Virus record (IMG/VR): IMGVR_UViG_3300044844_000928 | Length of the DNA stretch: 64,000 nucleotides | Source: a virus | Strand: one strand, 5' to 3' | Shown: piece after piece, positions 8,444 to 28,721 of the stretch | Layout: the number at the start of each line of letters is the position of its first letter | Numbering within the stretch: position 1 is the first letter of the stretch | Notes under the pieces: model-generated | The model's input: only the letters and a program-made list of their open reading frames with translations | Database searches by the model: none | Told to the model about the DNA's origin: nothing | Made by a program: the position numbers and the translations under genes

Positions 8444-10237
8444 ATGCGAATTGAAGATATTATTATTTCTAATCTGATTTACAATGAAGAGTTTACTAGA
8501 AAAACCTTACCTTTCATTAAAAAAGAATATTTTACCGATAGGATGGAATCTATTCTTGTTAACGAAATTGGCGAATACTTTACCAAGTTCAATAAGATTA
8601 TTACACCACAGATTCTTGATATTGAAATCAGAAACAGAACTGACATCAATGATAAAGAATTAACTGAGTTAACGGCGCTTGCTTCTAAAATTGAACAAAA
8701 AGATATTAATGATGAATGGTTATTACTTGAAACTGAAAAATTCTGTAAAGATAAAGCAGTTTATGGTGCCATATTACATTCTATTAAGATTATTGAGGGC
8801 AAGGATAAACAGTTCCGTGAAGATGCTATTCCGTCTATATTATCTGACGCATTAGCGGTATCTTTTGATACAAATGTTGGTCATGATTACATTTTAGATT
8901 ACTCTGAACGATACGACCATTATCATAACGTTGAAACTAAAATTCCGTTTGACTTAGAGTTGATGAATAAAATTACGGGCGGCGGGTTAAGCCTTAAAAC
9001 GTTAAATTGTTTCTTAGCAGGTTGCGTTCATCCTGATACGTCTATTTCAGTTAGGATTACCAGTAAACAGGGTTGGGTAGCTGAAAAGCATATTGCGATT
9101 GGTGATGTTAAAGATTTGTTATTAGATTATAAAATAGAGGTAACATCTCCAGATGGTTGGGTTAACGTATCGAATTTTGTGGATAAAGGTTTTTGGGATG
9201 AGTATGTCCTTACGTTATCTAACGGCGATACTGTTAGATGTAATGAGATTCATTTGTTTGAAACTCAGGCAGGTTGGTATTATGCTAAAGACCTTGTAGA
9301 CCAAACAGTAAACTTTCATACAGATAAAGGTTTAGTCAGCGGCTATATTGTTGAAACTGGTGAGTTGATTCCTATCGTTGATATTACGGTTGACCATGAT
9401 AACCATAGGTACTATACAAATGGGGTTTCTTCTCATAACACGGGCGTTGGTAAATCTTTAGCGATGTGTCATATTGCGGCGGCTACTATGGCGCAGGGTA
9501 AAAATGTTCTATATATTACAATGGAAATGTCTGAAGAACGTATTGCTGAGCGTATCGATGCTAATCTTTTGAATATTCCTATTACAGAGTTGAAAACTGT
9601 TGAACGACCTGTATTTGAAACTAGGATTCAAAGGTTGATGGAAAAGACGACCGGTAAATTAATCATCAAAGAATATCCGACGTCATCAGCTCATGCTGGT
9701 CATTTTAGAGTTTTGCTTGAGGAGTTAAAGGGTAAAAAGAACTTCAAGCCTGACCTCATCTGTATAGATTATTTGAATATTTGTGCGTCTCAAAGAATGA
9801 AATACGGTAGCGGTGTTAATTCTTATATGTTGATTAAATCTATTGCTGAAGAGTTGCGCGGGTTGGCGGTAGAGTATAATGTTCCGGTTGTCACCGCGAC
9901 TCAGCCTAATCGTGAAGGGCAGACTTCTACCGATATGGATTTAACTAATGTCAGTGAATCTATAGGTATCGCCCATACGTTAGATTTATTCATAGGCTTA
10001 ATGTCTACTGAAGAGTTAGAAGAAATGGGTCAGATTATGGTTAAGCAGTTGAAAAATAGATATAATGACATTTCCTATTATAAGCGTTTCACTATCGGTA
10101 TAGATAGAAGTAAGATGAGATTGTTTGATGTTGAAAGCTCTGCTCAGCATAATATATCCGGCGCGGGTACTGTTGATACAAATAACGGCTTTCAAACTAA
10201 AACTAAACGAATTGAAACGAATGGATTCAAATTTTAG
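8444..10237 (+). CDS. gp41: Replicative DnaB-like helicase gp41 containing an intein
   Basis: TEKFCKDKAVY, split P-loop LAG|TGVGKS, YITMEMSEE, IKEYPT, KQLKNRY. Confidence 0.96.
   Translation: MRIEDIIISNLIYNEEFTRKTLPFIKKEYFTDRMESILVNEIGEYFTKFNKIITPQILDIEIRNRTDINDKELTELTALASKIEQKDINDEWLLLETEKFCKDKAVYGAILHSIKIIEGKDKQFREDAIPSILSDALAVSFDTNVGHDYILDYSERYDHYHNVETKIPFDLELMNKITGGGLSLKTLNCFLAGCVHPDTSISVRITSKQGWVAEKHIAIGDVKDLLLDYKIEVTSPDGWVNVSNFVDKGFWDEYVLTLSNGDTVRCNEIHLFETQAGWYYAKDLVDQTVNFHTDKGLVSGYIVETGELIPIVDITVDHDNHRYYTNGVSSHNTGVGKSLAMCHIAAATMAQGKNVLYITMEMSEERIAERIDANLLNIPITELKTVERPVFETRIQRLMEKTTGKLIIKEYPTSSAHAGHFRVLLEELKGKKNFKPDLICIDYLNICASQRMKYGSGVNSYMLIKSIAEELRGLAVEYNVPVVTATQPNREGQTSTDMDLTNVSESIGIAHTLDLFIGLMSTEELEEMGQIMVKQLKNRYNDISYYKRFTIGIDRSKMRLFDVESSAQHNISGAGTVDTNNGFQTKTKRIETNGFKF
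9023..9439 (+). mobile_element. 139-aa mini-intein in the gp41 Walker A motif
   Basis: Starts CVHPDT, block B CNEIH, ends YYTNGVSSHN followed by Thr; no endonuclease domain. Confidence 0.95.
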
Positions 10238-10238
10238 T

Positions 10239-10276
10239 CTAAATACCTTTACTTTGAAACGGGTTTAAAGTATAAT
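10239..10276 (+). promoter_or_regulatory. Promoter of the modification cluster (early type, with upstream CTAAATA)
   Basis: TTTACT 10248-10253, TATAAT 10271-10276. Confidence 0.8.
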
Positions 10277-10304
10277 TATTATTTTTATAAGAGGAATTTG
10301 AATT

Positions 10305-11711
10305 ATGGCTAATGTTATTGTTGCCAAATCTAAACTAGATTGTGAGCACCTATTGGGTAGATTTCTTGATGAATCTCATTACGATATTTTGGTTGAAGAA
10401 GATACCGACTGTTATATGCCTGCTATGTGTGATTTATCTACACAGGTAGATTGTGAATCAGATTGTAGCTCATGCGATAAAGGTCAAGACGAACTGCGTA
10501 TTGCGTTCAAATTTAGAAAAAACTTCTTCAGTAAAGAAGAGCACGACTGGGCGTATGAGGGGTTAAAAGATGCTGCCACTGTATCTAATAACAGAGGTCT
10601 TGCCGCCGGTACGTTTCAAGATACAGGTAATATTGATGGTACATTTAGCGATAACTCTGGTCGTATTAGGGTTAAGCCTAAAGAACATGCTATTTTAGAT
10701 TACTTCATTAATCCTATTGACGATTTGTATAATGAAGGTGATGAGTTTGATAAAATCAAAAATGCTCATTATGTTGATAATGAAATTCGTTGCCAGGTTT
10801 GGTTGCCTTCTAAATTACCTGAAGGATTTAATTTTGATGAGTGGGCTGAAGCGACTTCTAAGTTACCGCGTGAAGCGGCTAAAGCTGAAGCTGAAATGGT
10901 TGCTAAAGAATTCATTTCTAGTACAAACTATGCTGTTCCATGTAATTCTGGTGTAGCAGGTTGGTTTGATAGATACCCTAGAATTCCATATGGTAGACCA
11001 ACATCATATACAAATTATCAGTTTGATAAATTCAAAAAATGTTTCCCTTTTATCCAGTCTTTGAACAAAGGGTTTAAAACCTTATTGCCATGGCGCTGGG
11101 GTAATCAAAAAGCGGCAGCTGATAAAATTGATGAAAAGTTTTTGGTTCCAGGCACGGTATTTACTACATTAACAGTGAATAATACCTTTAGAACGGCGGC
11201 TCATTATGACGCCGGCGATTTGAATGAAGGCTTATCTAATTTACTAGTGTTATCTGTTAATGATAACTATTCTGGCGGCTATCTAGTATTTCCAGAATAC
11301 AGAATCGCGGTTAGCGTTAGACCTCTAGATTTGTTACTTGTTAATAATCATGAAGTTATGCATGGTAACACGCCTATCGTTAAAAATGACGACTTAGCTG
11401 AGCGAGTTTCTATTATTTGTTACTTCAGAGAAAATATGTTAAACTTAGGTTCTTACGACTACGAAGATTGCCGGTTCAATTTCGTTGAATCTAGAAAAAA
11501 TGACCCAGACCATAAAGACCAACGGTTTAGATGGAACGGTATTACTCCAGGAATGTGGGCTGACCATGAATCTAAAGATGGTGATTATTCTAAAGCTAAA
11601 GAATGGTACGATTATCTAAAGGCTCAGCCTAATGGAAATGAATGGTTAGATAAGTATCACCCTTGGCTTAAAAACGCCTATGAAAGTGTGTCATTAGAGG
11701 AATTCTTTTAA
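10305..11711 (+). CDS. TET/JBP-family 2-oxoglutarate/Fe(II) dioxygenase
   Basis: FTTLTVNNTFRTAAHYD (HxD), GGYLVFPEY, MHGNTPI (distal His), ERVSIICYFR (2OG-binding Arg). Confidence 0.88.
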   Translation: MANVIVAKSKLDCEHLLGRFLDESHYDILVEEDTDCYMPAMCDLSTQVDCESDCSSCDKGQDELRIAFKFRKNFFSKEEHDWAYEGLKDAATVSNNRGLAAGTFQDTGNIDGTFSDNSGRIRVKPKEHAILDYFINPIDDLYNEGDEFDKIKNAHYVDNEIRCQVWLPSKLPEGFNFDEWAEATSKLPREAAKAEAEMVAKEFISSTNYAVPCNSGVAGWFDRYPRIPYGRPTSYTNYQFDKFKKCFPFIQSLNKGFKTLLPWRWGNQKAAADKIDEKFLVPGTVFTTLTVNNTFRTAAHYDAGDLNEGLSNLLVLSVNDNYSGGYLVFPEYRIAVSVRPLDLLLVNNHEVMHGNTPIVKNDDLAERVSIICYFRENMLNLGSYDYEDCRFNFVESRKNDPDHKDQRFRWNGITPGMWADHESKDGDYSKAKEWYDYLKAQPNGNEWLDKYHPWLKNAYESVSLEEFF

Positions 11712-12910
11712 TGAATTTATATGAATTAGACTTAGATTTATCATCGTACAAGGATGTACGATTACCACAAAATAGACTTGAAGCTTTTAGACGAGTTGCT
11801 GTCACTAGAATGTATGAAGGAGATTTAGACCATTGGCATTCTGGTTTAGTTATTTCCGATATGATGGGGTTAACTAAAGACCAAAAAGCTTTGTATTGTT
11901 TGGTATTTGGACAATCATACCGTAACCACTGGGCAATGATTGTACTCCAGCAGTTTCCTGACTTACTGAATACAAAACATGAACATATAGTTGAGTGGCA
12001 CGATGTTAACTGGAAACGAGCATTTTATGCTAAAGACGCAAAATGGAATTTAAGAAAATTTCCTGATTATGTGAAGTCGATTAAAGCGACAATAGGAAAC
12101 GACTCCCCATATGATTACCTTGAGCGGGTATCCACTGTCGGTAATACGGCAGAAAACTTTTACTCCTTGAATAAATCTTTACAAAGTATGTATTCTATAG
12201 GAAGAATGACTGCGTGGTTAGCACAACAGACTGTATATGAATTTTTCGATTTTGACGTCGACCACTGGGATCTACAGTTGTATTCTGATACATGGAGTCA
12301 ATATGATTCTTTGTGTTACTTATTCAATAGAGAAGATATAGCGACTAAGAGAAATGGAGTGAAGGTTAAACCTGCTAAGTCAGAAATAAATTTGATGGAA
12401 ACGAATTTCCAGTATTTGATGGAATACATCAACAGCAACTCTAACATAAAATTAGATGTCTATAATATTGAATCATGTTTATGTGAGTTCAGAAAAACCG
12501 CAGGTGCTGGTGGAAGAAAGCCTAAAGAATTTACAGGATGGACAACTAACGAACTTGCTGATCAATATGATGCGTTATCTTCTGCGTGGGAAGAAATTGA
12601 CTGGAAACCTTATATTGCTGGGTTGATGACTAAAGGCAAAAACTTCACTGATTTTTCTTTAAATGAAGAATATTTCACTGTGATGAAAAATTATGGACTA
12701 AATTTGAATATGCATCTGTACTACAATGATGAACCTGATGTACATAAATTATTGTCACTGGAAAAATTTAAAACAAATAGCATGAAAAAACTGGATTCGG
12801 ATTGGGTTGAGTTGTTCAGCGAAACAGAAAGAGATATGTTAAAAGTTAAGTTTGACCCAACGCTATTTTTAAGAAAACAAAATATTGTTGATACATGCTT
12901 TACTTTATAA
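11711..12910 (+). CDS. aGPT-Pplase / amino acid:DNA transferase-like protein (HhH glycosylase fold)
   Basis: SIGRMTAW HhH-like motif and C-terminal IESCLCEFRK (ExxLCxxxK); adjacent to TET and in a cluster with a P-loop kinase. Confidence 0.72.
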   Translation: MNLYELDLDLSSYKDVRLPQNRLEAFRRVAVTRMYEGDLDHWHSGLVISDMMGLTKDQKALYCLVFGQSYRNHWAMIVLQQFPDLLNTKHEHIVEWHDVNWKRAFYAKDAKWNLRKFPDYVKSIKATIGNDSPYDYLERVSTVGNTAENFYSLNKSLQSMYSIGRMTAWLAQQTVYEFFDFDVDHWDLQLYSDTWSQYDSLCYLFNREDIATKRNGVKVKPAKSEINLMETNFQYLMEYINSNSNIKLDVYNIESCLCEFRKTAGAGGRKPKEFTGWTTNELADQYDALSSAWEEIDWKPYIAGLMTKGKNFTDFSLNEEYFTVMKNYGLNLNMHLYYNDEPDVHKLLSLEKFKTNSMKKLDSDWVELFSETERDMLKVKFDPTLFLRKQNIVDTCFTL

Positions 12911-12927
12911 AGAAAATCATTTATAAT
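12899..12927 (+). promoter_or_regulatory. Promoter
   Basis: TTTACT-N17-TATAAT. Confidence 0.8.
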
Positions 12928-12951
12928 ATTATTTTTATTTAGGAAAAACAA

Positions 12952-14244
12952 ATGTCAAAAATACGAGTAGCATTAGTGGGTGTTGGTTCTTGCGCTAAAT
13001 CTTTGGTGGAAGGCGTCCAATACTACATAGAAAATCAAAATGATACAGTCGGTTTAATGTATCCAGATATCGGTGGCTATACCGTTAACAATATCGAATT
13101 CGTGTGTGGGTTTGATGTTGATATTCGTAAAGTTAACCTACCACTAAAAGAAGCATTAAGAGCAAATCCAAATTGCTCTATGGATCATGTTAATGAAATT
13201 TCAGACGCATGTGTACCAAAAGGCGCTATCGTTTATTCTGGTCCGGAGTTAGATGGTGTGGCTCCTCATATGTTAGACTATCCAGAAAACGTTTCGTTTA
13301 GAACCGGCGCTATTCCGGCTGAATCTTTTCAACGTGTTGTTGAATTGTTAAAATACCATAAAGTTGATGCCGTCGTTAACTATCTTCCAGTAGGCTCTCA
13401 CGAAGCAAGCAAATTCTATATCGATGCGGCGGTTAAAGCTGGCTGTCATTTTGTTAACTGTATTCCTACATTTATTTCTACTGAAGAAGCTCAACTTGTT
13501 GAACAAAAGTTTATTGACGCAGGGTTGACTATTGTTGGTTCTGATATGCGTTCTGGGTTCGGTGCTTCACGTTTATCTGAGATTTTACAAGGCGGTATGC
13601 TTGACGCGGGATTATTAGTTACTCAACATATCCAAATGAATATGGCGGCTGGCACTACGCAAGGTCAAGAAAATATCCGTACCGGTAGAACAGCCAACAC
13701 CGATTTCTTAAATATGGCTAAAACTGACCGATTAGAATCTAAACATATTTCTAAAGAAAATGTATTGAAAGGTCAAAATAGTGTTCGAAATACTTCTATT
13801 GATGGAATGACTTTATATGCTGGTCCATCTTTAACAGTTATTCAAAAACCAGGAGGAACTTATGTCGGTTCTGATAATAAAATTGCCAATATTGATATTG
13901 TAGCTTACGGGTTTGCCGGTGCTAGATATGAATTAACTGCTAGATTATCAGTTCAAGATTCTCCTAATTCCGGTGCGGTTGTTGTATCTGCTATTAGATT
14001 TTGTAAAGTGGCTGCTGAGTTAGGTATCGTTGGGTTCTTACGCGGTGCTTCTCATATTACGCAAAAAACGCCGCCGGTTCAAATGAAAATTGAAGATGCT
14101 AAATTTGAGTGTGACGCATTAGCAAGACGTATTGTTACGCCTATGACTGAATCTCAATTGAAAGAAAATAACCCAATTGCTAAAAATTTACCTTATACAT
14201 TCCAAAAAGCGGTAAACGACTATGCAACTAATTCTCCACGATAA
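12952..14244 (+). CDS. ino1: Myo-inositol-1-phosphate synthase homolog
   Basis: VALVGVGSCAKSLVEG (Rossmann), VNYLPVGS, FVNCIP, NTDFLNM, RLESKHISK, DSPNS, KTPP. Confidence 0.92.
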   Translation: MSKIRVALVGVGSCAKSLVEGVQYYIENQNDTVGLMYPDIGGYTVNNIEFVCGFDVDIRKVNLPLKEALRANPNCSMDHVNEISDACVPKGAIVYSGPELDGVAPHMLDYPENVSFRTGAIPAESFQRVVELLKYHKVDAVVNYLPVGSHEASKFYIDAAVKAGCHFVNCIPTFISTEEAQLVEQKFIDAGLTIVGSDMRSGFGASRLSEILQGGMLDAGLLVTQHIQMNMAAGTTQGQENIRTGRTANTDFLNMAKTDRLESKHISKENVLKGQNSVRNTSIDGMTLYAGPSLTVIQKPGGTYVGSDNKIANIDIVAYGFAGARYELTARLSVQDSPNSGAVVVSAIRFCKVAAELGIVGFLRGASHITQKTPPVQMKIEDAKFECDALARRIVTPMTESQLKENNPIAKNLPYTFQKAVNDYATNSPR

Positions 14245-14247
14245 ACT

Positions 14248-15510
14248 ATGACTAAAAAATTAAAAATTGGAATTTTGATTACAAACGATGTGACAATGGA
14301 CGGTAAAATCATGTCGGAGTTTCTGTACTTCAATGCTGTGTACGAAAAACAGAAACAGTACACACCAGACCTTATTGTTGATTTGATAACCTTATCAAAA
14401 AACAGTTTGCGTCTGGTTGAACGGTACGATGTCGCATCATTAGAGGGTGATAGTTGTTTTGATTTTCCTCATAAAACAATTTTGGTGACTGATGATATTG
14501 GTATCGAACGTGTTTCCGACGAATATGATATATTGATAACAACCAGAAATTATGGTGTTATTTTCGGTGGTATGTTAAGCGGTAGATCTATCTTACAATA
14601 TAAACTTTCTAATATGTTTAGCAGAAAAAATAAGCCTGTTATGATACGGGTTACTGATTCTGAAGATGTCGCATGTGATTACTTAAAACTTGCTATGTTA
14701 AATATAGACGGCATGGAAAAAAATATTAAAGATAAAAACCCAGAAGCATATGAGCAGGCTAAAACATTTGTCGAAACTCAACAATTTATAGATTACAATA
14801 ATGTCTATTGGTTAGCTAATGGTTCGCCTAAAATAAACTGGTTATATGATACTGTGCTCAATAAAAAATCAGCTGGTCCATTAGCCGGCTTGGTTTCAGA
14901 AGATGTGGTAAAACGCAACACAATATACCTTTCCGATGATATTTTTTTCCTTGTTAAAGAAAACCATAGCAAATATGGTTATCTGGATAAAACTGTTCCT
15001 AAAAATAATTCGTTTTGTTTTATAGGCTTTTTGAGTGGAATTAACAAAACGCGGTTGAAAGTTTTTAATAATTTACTAAAGGAAAATCCTGCTAATTTGC
15101 CACCGATACATTTCTTTGGTGATGTTGACAAGTTATCTTCTGATATTCCTGTTGTTGATATAGAACAAGGTAGCATATTGGGCAACTCCCCAGAATATTT
15201 TGAATTTATTAATAATCACCTTGCATATTTGTTTGTAGGTAAAGGCAGAGAGAATATTTCTTATGTTGGTAAAACCTGCTATGATTCCCTTGTCGCAAGA
15301 ACACCAATAGTTGTGTATTCAAAATGTGATGTCGATAGGGTTATGTTCCCTAATAATCCAGAATTCTATTTCGATAATGTTACAGAGTTAGCCGCTATGT
15401 ATGAATTACTTCAAGATAACATAGTTAGATCTAAATGGGTCGATATTCAAACTAAAGTTATCTTCAAAGAATTAGACGTTGAGCCTGTAGATTTTTCTTT
15501 ACTTTGTTAG
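14248..15510 (+). CDS. DNA beta-glucosyltransferase-like (T4 BGT, GT-B) glycosyltransferase
   Basis: Colinear matches to T4 BGT as recalled: DEYDILI..IFGG, TD, IHFFG, AYLFVG, PEFYFDNVTEL...IQ. Confidence 0.75.
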   Translation: MTKKLKIGILITNDVTMDGKIMSEFLYFNAVYEKQKQYTPDLIVDLITLSKNSLRLVERYDVASLEGDSCFDFPHKTILVTDDIGIERVSDEYDILITTRNYGVIFGGMLSGRSILQYKLSNMFSRKNKPVMIRVTDSEDVACDYLKLAMLNIDGMEKNIKDKNPEAYEQAKTFVETQQFIDYNNVYWLANGSPKINWLYDTVLNKKSAGPLAGLVSEDVVKRNTIYLSDDIFFLVKENHSKYGYLDKTVPKNNSFCFIGFLSGINKTRLKVFNNLLKENPANLPPIHFFGDVDKLSSDIPVVDIEQGSILGNSPEYFEFINNHLAYLFVGKGRENISYVGKTCYDSLVARTPIVVYSKCDVDRVMFPNNPEFYFDNVTELAAMYELLQDNIVRSKWVDIQTKVIFKELDVEPVDFSLLC

Positions 15511-15526
15511 ATAATTAAGTTATAAT
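15498..15526 (+). promoter_or_regulatory. Promoter
   Basis: TTTACT-N17-TATAAT. Confidence 0.8.
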
Positions 15527-15558
15527 TGAATAGTAAAATTAACTTTAGGGTATTATGA

Positions 15559-15939
15559 ATGCAAATTAACACTTTTGATATTGATGGCGTTATTTATATG
15601 GGCAAAGGGTTACGCGGTGTTAGACCTGACCCAGATGATATTATTATAACAGGTAGATCTATAGAAGAAACGCGGGCAACGCTAACTATGTTACATCAAC
15701 GCGGTATTTATAATCAAGTCTTCTTTAATCCTATTCGATATCATGAAAAAACTCGCGTTAGTTCTGGTTTACATAAGGCTAGAACTATCGAAATGCTGAT
15801 CGAGTCTGGTTATGATATTCAGTTTCATTTTGAGGACGATCCTATTCAAATAGAAACCTTAAGAAATTACTGTAAAAAAGTACATGTTATTGCTATAGAT
15901 TCCCCTACTGAAAAAGAAAACGTGAGAGCTGAATTATGA
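15559..15939 (+). CDS. Capless HAD-superfamily phosphatase
   Basis: FDIDGV (motif I), ITGRS (II), K (III), FEDD (IV). Confidence 0.88.
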   Translation: MQINTFDIDGVIYMGKGLRGVRPDPDDIIITGRSIEETRATLTMLHQRGIYNQVFFNPIRYHEKTRVSSGLHKARTIEMLIESGYDIQFHFEDDPIQIETLRNYCKKVHVIAIDSPTEKENVRAEL

Positions 15940-16481
15940 GAAAAATTATTGCTGTTTGTGGTGTCCCTGGAACCGGTAAAACTACTTTGTTTCGTGAGTT
16001 TATGAAAAACTATACTTGGGAGCGGCGCGAAGAAGCTAAACTTGTTTCGTCAGAATATTGTAAAGATTTGAATTTACATATCCTAGGAAAGTATGACGAA
16101 GGTGAAGTATTTGCCGGCACGGACAAGTTGAGCCTTGCTGTCCAACCAGAATTTATAAAATGGTTAGAATCTTCAGATACCAATGTTTTATGGGAAGGAG
16201 ATAGGTTGACTAGCGCAAAACTTTTTGAATTCTGCGCTAATATGAAAGGAGTAGATTTTGAAATTATAGTCTTAAAATGTCCAGATGAAACTTTAAAGGA
16301 AAGATATGGTGAGCGTGGTTCTGAACAATCAGAAACGTTTTTAGCTGGTAGGTACACTAAGATATCTAATATTGAATCTAATTTTGATTTGATGTCAAAT
16401 GTAACTGTCTATAAAAATTCTTCTAAGGAAGAACAAGCTGTACTTTTAAGTAAATTAAATTCTTCCTTTGTTAATCTATAA
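15936..16481 (+). CDS. P-loop kinase, 5-hmdU DNA kinase-like
   Basis: GVPGTGKT, ILGKY..GTD, VLWEGDRL, ERxxERG; neighbourhood of a modification cluster. Confidence 0.75.
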   Translation: MRKIIAVCGVPGTGKTTLFREFMKNYTWERREEAKLVSSEYCKDLNLHILGKYDEGEVFAGTDKLSLAVQPEFIKWLESSDTNVLWEGDRLTSAKLFEFCANMKGVDFEIIVLKCPDETLKERYGERGSEQSETFLAGRYTKISNIESNFDLMSNVTVYKNSSKEEQAVLLSKLNSSFVNL

Positions 16482-17323
16482 AAATCTGGCTTATTAGGGT
16501 TAGCAAGCGCCTTTCCTATATTTATTTTTATGTTATTGTTTTTATACCATAAAGAAGCTGCTGAAATTGATTCAAATATCATACCCTGACAATAGACCGG
16601 TTTTTTTGACGCATTAATTGCAATGTTTATACTATAGTCAATTTGTTCCTTTGTACGGCGCTTATTTGCTTCAGCAACAGCTTTTTTTTGTTTATCTGAT
16701 GTTGGTTTCCCTACTCTAGTGACTCTTAGCTTTTCTATGTGTTCTTTTGTCTGCTTTTTTCCTTTACAGGGACTTGGTTTTTGTATCCAAGTCCCATTAA
16801 GCACATTTGGGTCATTTTTATCTACTCTACCCAAATATTCCCCAGTTTTAGCATCCAATGCTAATATTTTACCCAATAATGCTTCTCTACGTTTTATTTT
16901 AACACTTTCTTTTTTTGATGGATTATTTTCTGTCATTTGTTTGGAAGTGCGAACAGAATTATCTAATTTTAATTTTTCATAAATTTTTGAATTAATACGG
17001 GTATAATCTCTTTGTTGGTTTGAAGAACCAACATTATTCATTTTTACAAATCCTTTTATTTGACTTCCTCCATACGCTTTCCATAATATCCAATGTAACA
17101 AATAATGCTGTCTAGCTGTGACTATCAATTTATTCCATGCAAACATTTTTAAATTTGCATATTCAGGAAAAAGATCCTTTGCTCGAGGGCAAATATGGTG
17201 GTTTTCTGTGTAAACAAAATCATCAATTTTCTGTGTTTTGAACGATTCAATTAAAGTGTAGTATCTGTTGATGTAGTGCTGTGAATGTGGTTTTGACTGT
17301 AAAACCGCTAAAATATCTACCAT
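16409..17323 (-). CDS. Free-standing HNH homing endonuclease
   Basis: YTENHHICPR...TARQHYLLHWIL; basic NUMOD-like C-terminus; CTAAATA late promoter upstream on the minus strand (17350-17356). Confidence 0.85.
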   Translation of the reverse strand: MVDILAVLQSKPHSQHYINRYYTLIESFKTQKIDDFVYTENHHICPRAKDLFPEYANLKMFAWNKLIVTARQHYLLHWILWKAYGGSQIKGFVKMNNVGSSNQQRDYTRINSKIYEKLKLDNSVRTSKQMTENNPSKKESVKIKRREALLGKILALDAKTGEYLGRVDKNDPNVLNGTWIQKPSPCKGKKQTKEHIEKLRVTRVGKPTSDKQKKAVAEANKRRTKEQIDYSINIAINASKKPVYCQGMIFESISAASLWYKNNNIKINIGKALANPNKPDFYRLTKEEFNLLKSTACSSLEEFL

Positions 17324-17378
17324 GGCAAAATCTCTATTGGTTAAAATATTATTTAGTTGTAATTATATATGACTGTTC

Positions 17379-17423
17379 AACCAAGAAAAGATTTTAAACT
17401 TCATTAATAGTAAATTTGCGTGA
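17379..17423 (+). pseudogene. Orphaned 3' end of the P-loop kinase gene
   Basis: Reads NQEKILNFINSKFA*, aligning without gaps to the kinase tail EQAVLLSKLNSSFV; immediately precedes the operon terminator. Confidence 0.55.
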
Positions 17424-17429
17424 TGAATT

Positions 17430-17452
17430 AGCCGGCTTTGTGCCGGCTTTTT
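17430..17452 (+). terminator. Rho-independent terminator
   Basis: agccggc-tttgt-gccggct followed by a T run. Confidence 0.9.
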
Positions 17453-20310: not shown

Positions 20311-21003
20311 TTAACATTTTTTATTGGCACTTACAATTTCTCCAGTTGACCATCTAATATCATTTTTAGAAATTCGACCTAAAGATTCTCCGGTTGACAC
20401 TAATTTTGCTGAAGCTGTGTTTAAACTTGTTTCAGATGCACGCATTCTTTGGTATTCTGATTGAGGTTTCTGTATATAATTTTCGTGTATAGTTTTCCAT
20501 TGTAAAGCTTCTTTACAAGTTACACCACCATAAATTTCTTTATTTGAATAAAATTGTTCTTTTGTTACACGCACTCGTGTATTAAGTTGTTTATCCCACG
20601 CAGATACCATCCCATAACCTATATTGGAAGAACCGCGTTGACTTTCTGAAAACATCTTTTTAGCCGCAGCATATAGCACAGATAATGACCGTTGATGTTT
20701 TTGTTTATTCTGATTGCACATGCCGTTAAATGCTGAAATCATTTTGTAATTATTTGTTGCTTTAGCCAACAAATAATGTGCAATAAAATGTGCTCTGTGT
20801 GGAAGTTTAATTAAATTAAAATTTGATATTTTAAATTCTGGAAATAATGATTTAGGTAATATGTGATGATATTCAAAATATCCACTTATTGTGTATTGCA
20901 TAGACTCATAATGATTAATAAATTTTATGTATCTATCCATGTATAATTTATTTTCACTTATCGCAAAAAGTTTTTCTGTTACGCATATATTTGTACTGGT
21001 CAT
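20311..21003 (-). CDS. Free-standing HNH homing endonuclease
   Basis: FEYHHILPKS...NLIKLPHRAHFIAHYLL. Confidence 0.85.
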   Translation of the reverse strand: MTSTNICVTEKLFAISENKLYMDRYIKFINHYESMQYTISGYFEYHHILPKSLFPEFKISNFNLIKLPHRAHFIAHYLLAKATNNYKMISAFNGMCNQNKQKHQRSLSVLYAAAKKMFSESQRGSSNIGYGMVSAWDKQLNTRVRVTKEQFYSNKEIYGGVTCKEALQWKTIHENYIQKPQSEYQRMRASETSLNTASAKLVSTGESLGRISKNDIRWSTGEIVSANKKC

Positions 21004-28010: not shown

Positions 28011-28721
28011 ATGAGTGATGTGAAATATGTTGGTATGGCGGTTGAATTAATTACTAGCATGGGAACAGATTCTTCTGTTGTTAATGCTGCTAGGGTATCA
28101 ACTGCAAAAGATGATAGATTTAAAACGAATATAGATTCTAAAGATGAAGGATTGATTAGATACTTAGCGGCACATAAACATTGGACACCTTTCGCTCATA
28201 CTGCCATAACTTTTAAATTAAAAGTGCCAATTTTTGTTGCTAGGCAACTTGTGAAACATCAGGTAGGCGGTGTTGTAAACGAAATTAGCCGCCGATACGT
28301 TGATTCAACACCAGAGTTTTATATCCCTGCTGAATGGCGTGCTAGACCAAAAAAATCAATTAAACAGGGTTCAGGCGGCGTAATACCTTTTGACGACTCA
28401 CATATTAAAACTTCAGTTGCATATGCTTTGTCTACATATGAAGATGCATTAAAAGATGGTGTTGCCCCTGAATTAGCTAGAATGGTTCTTCCTCAAAATA
28501 TGATGACAGAGTTTTATTGGACAGGCAGTTTGTTATTTTTTGATAGAGTAAGGTATTTCCGAGTAGACCAACATGCTCAACAAGAATGTAAAGAGATCGC
28601 TGAGTTAATTAGCGCCGAATGTGAAAAGTTATTTCCAGTATCATGGCGTGAATTATCTAAAAATGTTTTAACGGTTGAGCAACCGAAACGTTCTTTTTAC
28701 TCAAAATTAAAATTCTGGTAA
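28011..28721 (+). CDS. thyX: FAD-dependent thymidylate synthase
   Basis: VVNAARVS, HWTPF, PIFVARQLVKH..NEISRRY, ARMVLP, HAQ.E. Confidence 0.95.
   Translation: MSDVKYVGMAVELITSMGTDSSVVNAARVSTAKDDRFKTNIDSKDEGLIRYLAAHKHWTPFAHTAITFKLKVPIFVARQLVKHQVGGVVNEISRRYVDSTPEFYIPAEWRARPKKSIKQGSGGVIPFDDSHIKTSVAYALSTYEDALKDGVAPELARMVLPQNMMTEFYWTGSLLFFDRVRYFRVDQHAQQECKEIAELISAECEKLFPVSWRELSKNVLTVEQPKRSFYSKLKFW

Follow-up and report, generated by a model that had tools for sequence, protein, structure and literature searches.

A candidate phage pathway for thymidine hypermodification with a self-made cyclitol donor

We analyzed a 64,000-nucleotide stretch (the window) of the IMG/VR virus record IMGVR_UViG_3300044844_000928, which is part of a T4-like phage genome, and focused on a cluster of six genes encoding a TET/JBP dioxygenase (hereafter TET), a transferase of the AADT/aGPT-Pplase2 type (AADT), a homolog of myo-inositol-1-phosphate synthase (MIPS), a BGT-like glycosyltransferase, a small HAD phosphatase (HAD) and a P-loop kinase. 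The cluster probably specifies a post-replicative hypermodification of thymidine, in which thymine would be converted through 5-hydroxymethyluracil (5hmU) and its phosphorylated form, 5-phosphomethyl-deoxyuridine (5-PmdU), to a cyclitol ether, with the donor made by the phage. More broadly, we lean towards the view that phages attach a self-made cyclitol to DNA bases as a new class of hypermodification; this would be an inositol-ether thymine here and a methylated or glycosylated version of it in relatives, with the same donor kit serving hydroxymethylcytosine and 7-deazaguanine systems. These predictions of substrates and products were drawn from protein families, folds, conserved residues and gene linkage. 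An inositol or cyclitol adduct on a thymine-derived base had been proposed in an earlier note on this DNA, and the transferase fold, the linkage of MIPS and the evidence for thymine as the target now argue in its favor. The six genes are as follows:

10305..11711, + strand: TET/JBP Fe/2-oxoglutarate dioxygenase, 468 aa (Pfam Tet_JBP, 4e-23)
11711..12910, + strand: AADT/aGPT-Pplase2 transferase, 399 aa, belonging to the MIPS-linked clade (Pfam ADDT, 5e-10, over the cut-off)
12952..14244, + strand: MIPS homolog, 430 aa (Pfam Inos-1-P_synth, 3e-8)
14248..15510, + strand: T4 BGT-like GT-B glycosyltransferase, 420 aa, accessory (Foldseek best match 1qkj, E 6e-11)
15559..15939, + strand: small HAD phosphatase, 126 aa (weak Pfam HAD match; motifs kept)
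15936..16481, + strand: P-loop nucleotide kinase 3, 181 aa, candidate 5hmU DNA kinase (Ploopntkinase3 PF18751, 7e-7, over the cut-off)

The earlier note had described six co-directional genes directly 3' of a gp41-type helicase and had assigned them to the TET/JBP, AADT-like, MIPS, BGT-like, HAD and P-loop kinase families. All six + strand open reading frames (ORFs) are real genes at these coordinates, and the family calls were largely upheld by Pfam, Foldseek and profile comparisons.

The transferase and its linkage to MIPS

The prediction that the product of 11711-12910 adopts the aGPT-Pplase fold was borne out by structure comparison and by its catalytic residues. In a wide VIA search, the AADT model aligned with PaMx11 gp46 (8z2m) over 248 residues with a Z of 14.9 and an rmsd of 3.7, the next family reaching a Z of 9.9. 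In profile comparison it aligns over 310 columns (probability 98.3) with a Kuttervirus AADT; judging by the family scores and an HMUD2 neighbor of the latter, we take it to be a ViI gp247-type enzyme. Foldseek with the AADT model gave no significant match (gp46 at E 0.75), and PDB sequence searches with the AADT, the kinase and HAD returned nothing informative. E254, S255 and C258 correspond to the metal-binding Glu, the Thr/Ser and the catalytic Cys of the motif E-(S/T)-x-x-C, with the Glu and Cys invariant in 78/78 AADTs; the matching metal ligands and catalytic Cys have been tested in phage 15599 (PMC13458397).

To survey the linkage, we used the best 80 of 211 viral matches to MIPS along with three cultured phage groups, and a reverse query with an AADT alignment, which recovered 66 loci as against 3 from a single-sequence AADT scan. 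MIPS is present in 62 of the 64 non-truncated loci of the alignment scan (34/35 after de-replication), which confirms the co-occurrence of MIPS and AADT in other phages that the earlier note had put forward as a check. Because the alignment was built from MIPS-linked proteins, a control set was drawn by TET and kinase queries. In many TET-AADT-kinase clusters of this set the AADT is shorter and MIPS is missing; in place of the latter they have genes of the glutamine amidotransferase, GNAT and amidoligase-like kinds.

We then placed 78 de-replicated AADTs in a quick tree with long branches flagged. In one branch of 35 rows (SH-aLRT 100, identity down to 23-27%), 34 have MIPS at a distance of no more than 5 kb, whereas none of the other 43 has MIPS nearby. 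In the same genomic slot, a glutamine amidotransferase-type gene lies near 28 of these 43 versus 0/35 of the MIPS branch, so that each AADT clade has its own kind of donor-supply gene. No MIPS occurs anywhere in two near-complete genomes with AADTs of the other clade. The AADT-MIPS branch is a deep one with members in both T4-like and PolA-type phages, at different genomic positions. Tailoring genes, namely FkbM-type methyltransferases and glycosyltransferases, come and go beside the MIPS-linked AADTs, and such neighbors suit a polyol donor. From the side of MIPS, at least 106 distinct phage sequences were found, each of them either inside a cluster for DNA modification or on a contig that is cut short, and the same holds for those of all three cultured groups; the MIPS-bearing system is therefore not rare.

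A sister phage (~88% DNA identity on both sides) has the AADT replaced by one that is 25% identical, plus a glycosyltransferase, and the replacement again falls in the MIPS-linked branch. Compared with locus L146, the swap covers window positions 11716-12897, between the TET stop and the MIPS promoter, and has brought in a gene of the GT1 type together with an endonuclease-like ORF in antisense orientation; the BGT-like gene, too, has diverged in its N-terminal part in this comparison.

The MIPS-linked clade also has a distinctive pocket. The residue after the catalytic Cys is Gln or Glu in 35/35 (Glu in the window AADT), position 273 is Asp or Glu where all 43 other AADTs have Arg, and the clade has its own R33 and H41. 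In tested enzymes this residue next to the Cys helps to determine the donor, a Lys there binding the glycine carboxylate (PMC13458397), and the window AADT lacks this Lys of the glycine-type enzymes (YuA, M6, PaMx11). Its closest cultured relatives are the AADTs of the MIPS-bearing phages Cr30 and RP13 (E 1e-28 and 1e-27), with the next best at 2e-6; AADTs of Ackermannviridae are among these next relatives. The Caulobacter phage Cr30, which is widely used in laboratories, combines TET, AADT, a TAGT-like glycosyltransferase, MIPS, HAD and kinase, and the Ralstonia phage RP13 combines AADT, HMUDK_hel, MIPS (61% identical), HAD and an HMUD2-type kinase. The DNA of RP13 is reported to be highly modified, with its chemistry unidentified (PMC13697223). 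RP13 ORF133 (L081:13279-14535) scores as an HMUD2 5-hmdU DNA kinase at E 1e-13, where PMC13697223 reports none detectable.

Two further arrangements were seen among AADT loci. L147, L148 and ~40 similar lineages, of a type common in freshwater, combine TET, glutamine amidotransferase, GNAT/amidoligase, a short AADT with a distinct pocket and a kinase; in L244:2875-4856, a pair of ORFs lies between TET and the kinase, of which one encodes a distant AADT and the other, with a similar start, is unassigned.

Donor synthesis, kinase and glycosyltransferase

The phage MIPS is nearest to Mycobacterium tuberculosis Ino1 (1gr0, E 5e-55), with 190 bits to this enzyme versus 106 bits to the five-membered-cyclitol-phosphate synthase 6k96. 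The NAD-binding and catalytic residues of actinobacterial Ino1 and 6k96 are kept: the NAD-binding GxGxxA is present, and D198, N249, D251, K264, K268, D308, K310, D336 and K372, equivalent to Ino1 D197, N233, D235, K248, K252, D282, K284, D310 and K346, are invariant in 107 phage sequences. The phosphate-loop region is altered relative to Ino1, and an insertion is present. HAD conserves motifs I-IV (DxD, T, K, DD) in 94 sequences, with no solved relative found by sequence, and adjoins phage MIPS in 80/83 loci.

The Walker A motif of the kinase is invariant, and a kinase lies near AADT in 64 of the 78 AADT representatives, accompanying both AADT clades. Its look-alike clusters in the Atlas (score 0.96-0.97) contain 27-31% PF18748 members, with HMUD1 members among the neighbors. 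The PHROG label "terminase small subunit" for this protein was rejected as a carried-over annotation. In comparison with the sister phage, MIPS has 112 synonymous and 8 non-synonymous codon changes and the kinase 37 and 3, which show both, as judged by these counts, to be under strong purifying selection.

The ORF at 14248 has no Pfam match. Its model (mean pLDDT 82) is closest to T4 BGT, and a family profile of 12 homologs matches BGT by sequence at E 5e-4. D137 is invariant and lies near the position expected for the catalytic Asp of BGT, D100, to which it may correspond. The gene occurs next to MIPS only in the five nearest loci, and we rejected a core role for it on account of this confinement. 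The BGT-like enzyme is accessory and glycosylation lies outside the core pathway; if it glycosylates the cyclitol or 5hmU, as had been suggested, it would do so only in the nearest relatives.

Thymine as the likely target

In TET, H300, D302, H353 and R367 are invariant, forming the HxD...H iron triad and the 2-oxoglutarate-binding Arg. Its C-terminal tail resembles that of related phage DNA polymerases, the pattern being found in 117/143 TETs and 53/56 polymerases, which suggests sliding-clamp binding. As in clade C1 T-dioxygenases, TET is without a cognate C5-methyltransferase and is linked to a P-loop kinase and an AADT, in a genome of which the window is an incomplete part. We consider it a probable thymine dioxygenase.

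Several lines of evidence make thymine the likely target base, as read from the genomes compared. ThyX is encoded at 28011-28721, and a local HMM (hidden Markov model) search found no C5-methyltransferase in the window, both as stated in the earlier note, nor was one found in five records with this cluster, three of them complete. The TET-less versions of the cluster (L090-L093, L102 and RP13) carry thymidylate-synthase homologs with an Asn motif, which we take to be of the dUMP-hydroxymethylase type. The T-free site GGCC does not occur at all in the 64-kb window, where 78 copies would be expected; observed over expected counts come to 0.37 for TET-AADT-MIPS loci, 0.23 for the remaining TET-AADT loci and 0.91 for dCMP-hydroxymethylase-motif loci, ratios to which host differences could contribute. 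Together, the missing methyltransferase, the avoidance of GGCC and the dUMP-type enzymes of the TET-less versions favor thymine as the target, as had been put forward. Several T-containing palindromes are depleted too, implying that any protection is partial; this is in line with the low, sequence-specific oxidation of T described for phage dioxygenases (PMC13229309). GATC stands at 0.30 of expected in the window, and many six-base palindromes are absent, amounting to strong restriction-site avoidance.

Organization and setting of the locus

Upstream of the cluster lie uvsX and the gp41-type helicase. The latter has a 139-residue insert at Walker A (window 9023-9439), from Cys to His-Asn, which is probably a mini-intein (weak HINT match); relatives without the insert are ~463 aa long, and the likely helicase start codon is at 8444. 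The remaining features of the region are:

10248..10276, + strand: promoter-like motif before TET, 1 of 24 exact copies in the window
12899..12927, + strand: promoter-like motif before MIPS, copy of the repeated phage motif
15498..15526, + strand: promoter-like motif before HAD, copy of the repeated phage motif
16409..17323, - strand: homing endonuclease gene overlapping the kinase 3' end, mobile and outside the pathway (phrog_655, 8e-25; missing in another strain)
17430..17448, + strand: intrinsic terminator-like hairpin closing the region

The repeated motif consists of TTTACT, a 16-17 nt spacer and TATAAT, and with copies of it before TET, MIPS and HAD, the six genes do not make up a single, simple unit of transcription. 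The single terminator said to close the cluster does exist, but it lies ~950 bp 3' of the kinase, past the antisense homing endonuclease gene, and promoter motifs are present inside the cluster. In a contig from an independent 2017 lake sample, 16125-17379 is replaced by 307 other letters, which puts the terminator close behind the cluster there; the stretch 9000-16124 is continuous in this contig, which shows that the order of the genes did not arise through misassembly. Including the gene at 16409-17323, which has a clamp-type C-terminal tail, the window has two antisense phrog_655 homing endonuclease genes, the other at 20311-21003. Among the matches listed, the public sequencing runs that best contain the window DNA are lake and freshwater metagenomes, and there is no RNA run among those listed as containing it. 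The record closest to the window is 39.5 kb long.

The proposed pathway and its alternatives

In the pathway we favor, TET, probably tethered to the clamp, would oxidize some of the thymine in newly made phage DNA to 5hmU, and the P-loop kinase, by analogy with related 5hmU DNA kinases, would convert this to 5-PmdU. MIPS would cyclize a hexose 6-phosphate, most likely glucose-6-phosphate, to an inositol phosphate, from which HAD would strip the phosphate. Cys258 of the AADT would then attack C6, as in the published mechanism of the family; the phosphate would be expelled and a cyclitol hydroxyl would add to the exocyclic methylene. The product would be a 5-(cyclitol-O-methyl)uracil ether, analogous to the attachment of the serine hydroxyl in phage ViI, and the BGT-like enzyme could optionally add a sugar to the cyclitol or to leftover 5hmU. 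The likely purpose would be to shield the DNA from host nucleases.

A number of observations weigh against this pathway. The kinase, its weakest link, scores only with PF18751 Ploopntkinase3 and AAA models, not with HMUD1 or HMUD2 (PF18747, PF18748), and its profile match to a Kuttervirus HMUD2 is weak (probability 3%). We therefore view it as a candidate sister family of the proven 5hmU DNA kinases and not as a member. The role of 5hmU kinase claimed for it gains from its relationship to these enzymes and its AADT linkage, but it stands outside their Pfam families. Clade C1 TETs without a ParB reportedly showed no activity when assayed in E. coli (PMC13229309); no ParB-like gene adjoins TET, and PF02195 was not found in five related records, where divergent ParBs could escape. 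The AADT-MIPS link forms a single branch, which implies one origin long kept and not many independent events. Loci L123 and L232 are without HAD, and L132/L145:7221-10528 has the sole MIPS-branch AADT without a nearby MIPS, keeping HAD, FkbM and kinase; its cyclitol may be supplied by the host. The pocket of the AADT, being acidic, would also suit amines. MIPS scores 216 bits against the TIGR03450 Ino1 equivalog cut-off of 638, and 6k96, the enzyme of a five-membered cyclitol, shares its motifs, which makes "cyclitol" a safer term than "myo-inositol" (with a good but not overwhelming likelihood, by our estimate); that the donor is free myo-inositol, and not inositol phosphate or another cyclitol, is what we infer. 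The MIPS-HAD pair also occurs in hydroxymethylcytosine clusters and in Menderavirus 7-deazaguanine clusters in which neither an AADT of the clade nor such a kinase was found, and the cyclitol may thus reach DNA by another route. In the MIPS tree the AADT and dCMP-hydroxymethylase contexts interleave, with at least 3 switches forced by well-supported branches. These varied contexts link MIPS-HAD all the more strongly with DNA modification as a whole, while the route can differ.

The last point bears on one alternative, in which the cyclitol reaches DNA in another form or order: the donor might be inositol phosphate, giving an ether whose phosphate is kept or trimmed by HAD, or a phosphodiester, or else HAD might act on a DNA-bound phosphate. 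We regard this as unlikely, though deserving of some weight. The service of MIPS-HAD in clusters without a window-type kinase would fit it, as would the AADT-MIPS loci without HAD and the one with HAD but no MIPS; the clade-invariant R33 could bind a phosphate, and phosphate-linked sugar chains on thymine are found in SP-15 and Carin-5 (PMC12686479). However, HAD nearly always adjoins MIPS, none of the HAD proteins (0/90) has the clamp-type tail of DNA-acting enzymes, and the replacement of a conserved Arg by Asp/Glu in the clade disfavors an anionic donor. It is also rather improbable that MIPS and HAD are hitchhiking auxiliary metabolism, making inositol for osmotic, envelope or phosphate use, with the AADT using a host amine or amino acid. 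All but one of the characterized AADTs use amines, the enzyme of phage 15599 binds diamines through acidic residues of its pocket (PMC13458397), MIPS has its own promoter motif, and the sister phage exchanged its AADT yet kept MIPS. Against this stand the origin of the swapped-in AADT in the same MIPS-linked branch, the persistence of the link in T4-like and PolA-type phages at different positions, and the restriction of phage MIPS, the three cultured groups included, to DNA-modification clusters or truncated contigs.

That cytosine is modified instead, with TET oxidizing 5-methylcytosine from an unseen methylase and the cluster decorating 5-hydroxymethylcytosine, seems very improbable. The same MIPS-HAD subfamily does lie in the dCMP-hydroxymethylase clusters interleaved with it on the tree, a related kinase adjoins a C5-methyltransferase and TET in Melnitz phages, and the window covers only part of its genome. 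Yet the window and the five related records lack a C5-methyltransferase, GGCC is wholly avoided, AADTs are known to act on 5-PmdU only, and those clade C1 dioxygenases that are associated with P-loop kinases and AADTs oxidize T (PMC13229309). The 427-aa ORF beside the Melnitz kinase was considered and is not an AADT. We likewise give little credence to a base J-like glucosyl-5hmU, made by TET and the BGT-like enzyme, as the main product with the other genes secondary or decaying: the glycosyltransferase has the BGT fold and pairs of TET and glycosyltransferase are common, but the conserved core consists of AADT, MIPS, HAD and the kinase, the glycosyltransferase being found only in the nearest relatives, and MIPS and the kinase are under the strong purifying selection noted above.

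Two of the other settings of MIPS-HAD may be described here. In a large marine group (L024-L080, e.g. L039:6536-11769), a dCMP-type hydroxymethylase, a deaminase, MIPS, HAD and a C5-methylase occur together with a weakly BGT-like protein and an aGPT-Pplase-like protein of clade 1 in which E-x-x-x-C-Q is retained; no window-family kinase was found in it. In Stenotrophomonas phage Moby (L082:8207-13621), MIPS and HAD lie inside a folE, queC, TGT-like and queE 7-deazaguanine cluster, whose 403-aa TGT-like protein is related to the KVP40 type; no AADT, HMUDK_hel or window-type kinase was found in this genome. The product in Moby is possibly a cyclitol-bearing deazaguanine.

Relation to known systems and significance

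The proposed cyclitol-ether pathway has a chemical precedent in phage ViI, whose gp247 carries out an O-linked transfer in which the serine hydroxyl displaces the phosphate of phosphorylated 5hmU (PMC8989533). The ViI pathway to 5-NeOmdU, the 5-(2-aminoethoxy)methyl-deoxyuridine made by the 5hmU DNA kinase (5-HMUDK) gp67/gp243, gp247 and a PLP (pyridoxal phosphate) decarboxylase (Lee et al., PMC8989533), likewise uses a hydroxyl nucleophile with a Cys-catalyzed methylene. It differs in making 5hmU pre-replicatively through a dUMP hydroxymethylase, in taking serine from the host, in its other pocket residues, and in having no MIPS, HAD or TET. The glycine transferases of PaMx11, M6 and YuA and the polyamine transferases of PhiW-14 and SH-Ab 15599 (PMC8989533, PMC13458397) share the fold and E-(S/T)-x-x-C, whereas their products are N-linked and derived from host metabolites, and the Lys after the Cys of the glycine type is Glu/Gln in the MIPS-linked clade. 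The metavirome clusters of TET/JBP, P-loop kinase and AADT and the clade C1 T-dioxygenases (PMC8989533 Fig. 2; PMC8256090; PMC13229309) have the same three-gene post-replicative chassis and differ in their published neighbors, which are glutamine amidotransferases, amidoligases and ParB; these papers describe no characterized end product for them. This chassis is thus already published, and the cyclitol donor is probably a variant of it that yields a new base. The word "inositol" is absent from the main text of these three papers and from the 2026 Pplase2 survey, and a literature search on inositol and phage DNA modification, with subscription papers outside its scope, found no inositol-bearing base.

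Base J (JBP plus a glucosyltransferase) and the product of T4 BGT likewise have an oxidized pyrimidine with a C6 polyhydroxy group, but the product of the present cluster would be a carbocycle ether and not a glycoside, with a core step that needs no NDP-sugar. The arabinosyl-5-hydroxycytosine clusters of RB69, DLP3 and HY126 (PMC13326640) similarly encode the means of making their donor, a small sugar-phosphate phosphatase of the HAD type among them, while differing in their use of UDP-arabinose and of glycosyltransferases acting on cytosine. An inositol ether of 5hmdU is isomeric with dJ (C16H24N2O11, 420.14, calculated); a thymine-cyclitol adduct would have the mass of base J and could therefore have been misread as glucosylation, and a gain of 162 Da over 5hmdU is not necessarily due to glucose.

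If the proposed pathway is correct, it would bring a new class of natural DNA substituent, the carbocyclic polyol, and the first phage-made donor among the AADTs described in the cited papers. It would also offer a candidate for the heavy modification of RP13 DNA and a prediction for Cr30. A polyol-accepting AADT could serve DNA labeling, and, for the phages themselves, a bulky non-glycosidic mark could evade enzymes that recognize glucosylated bases.

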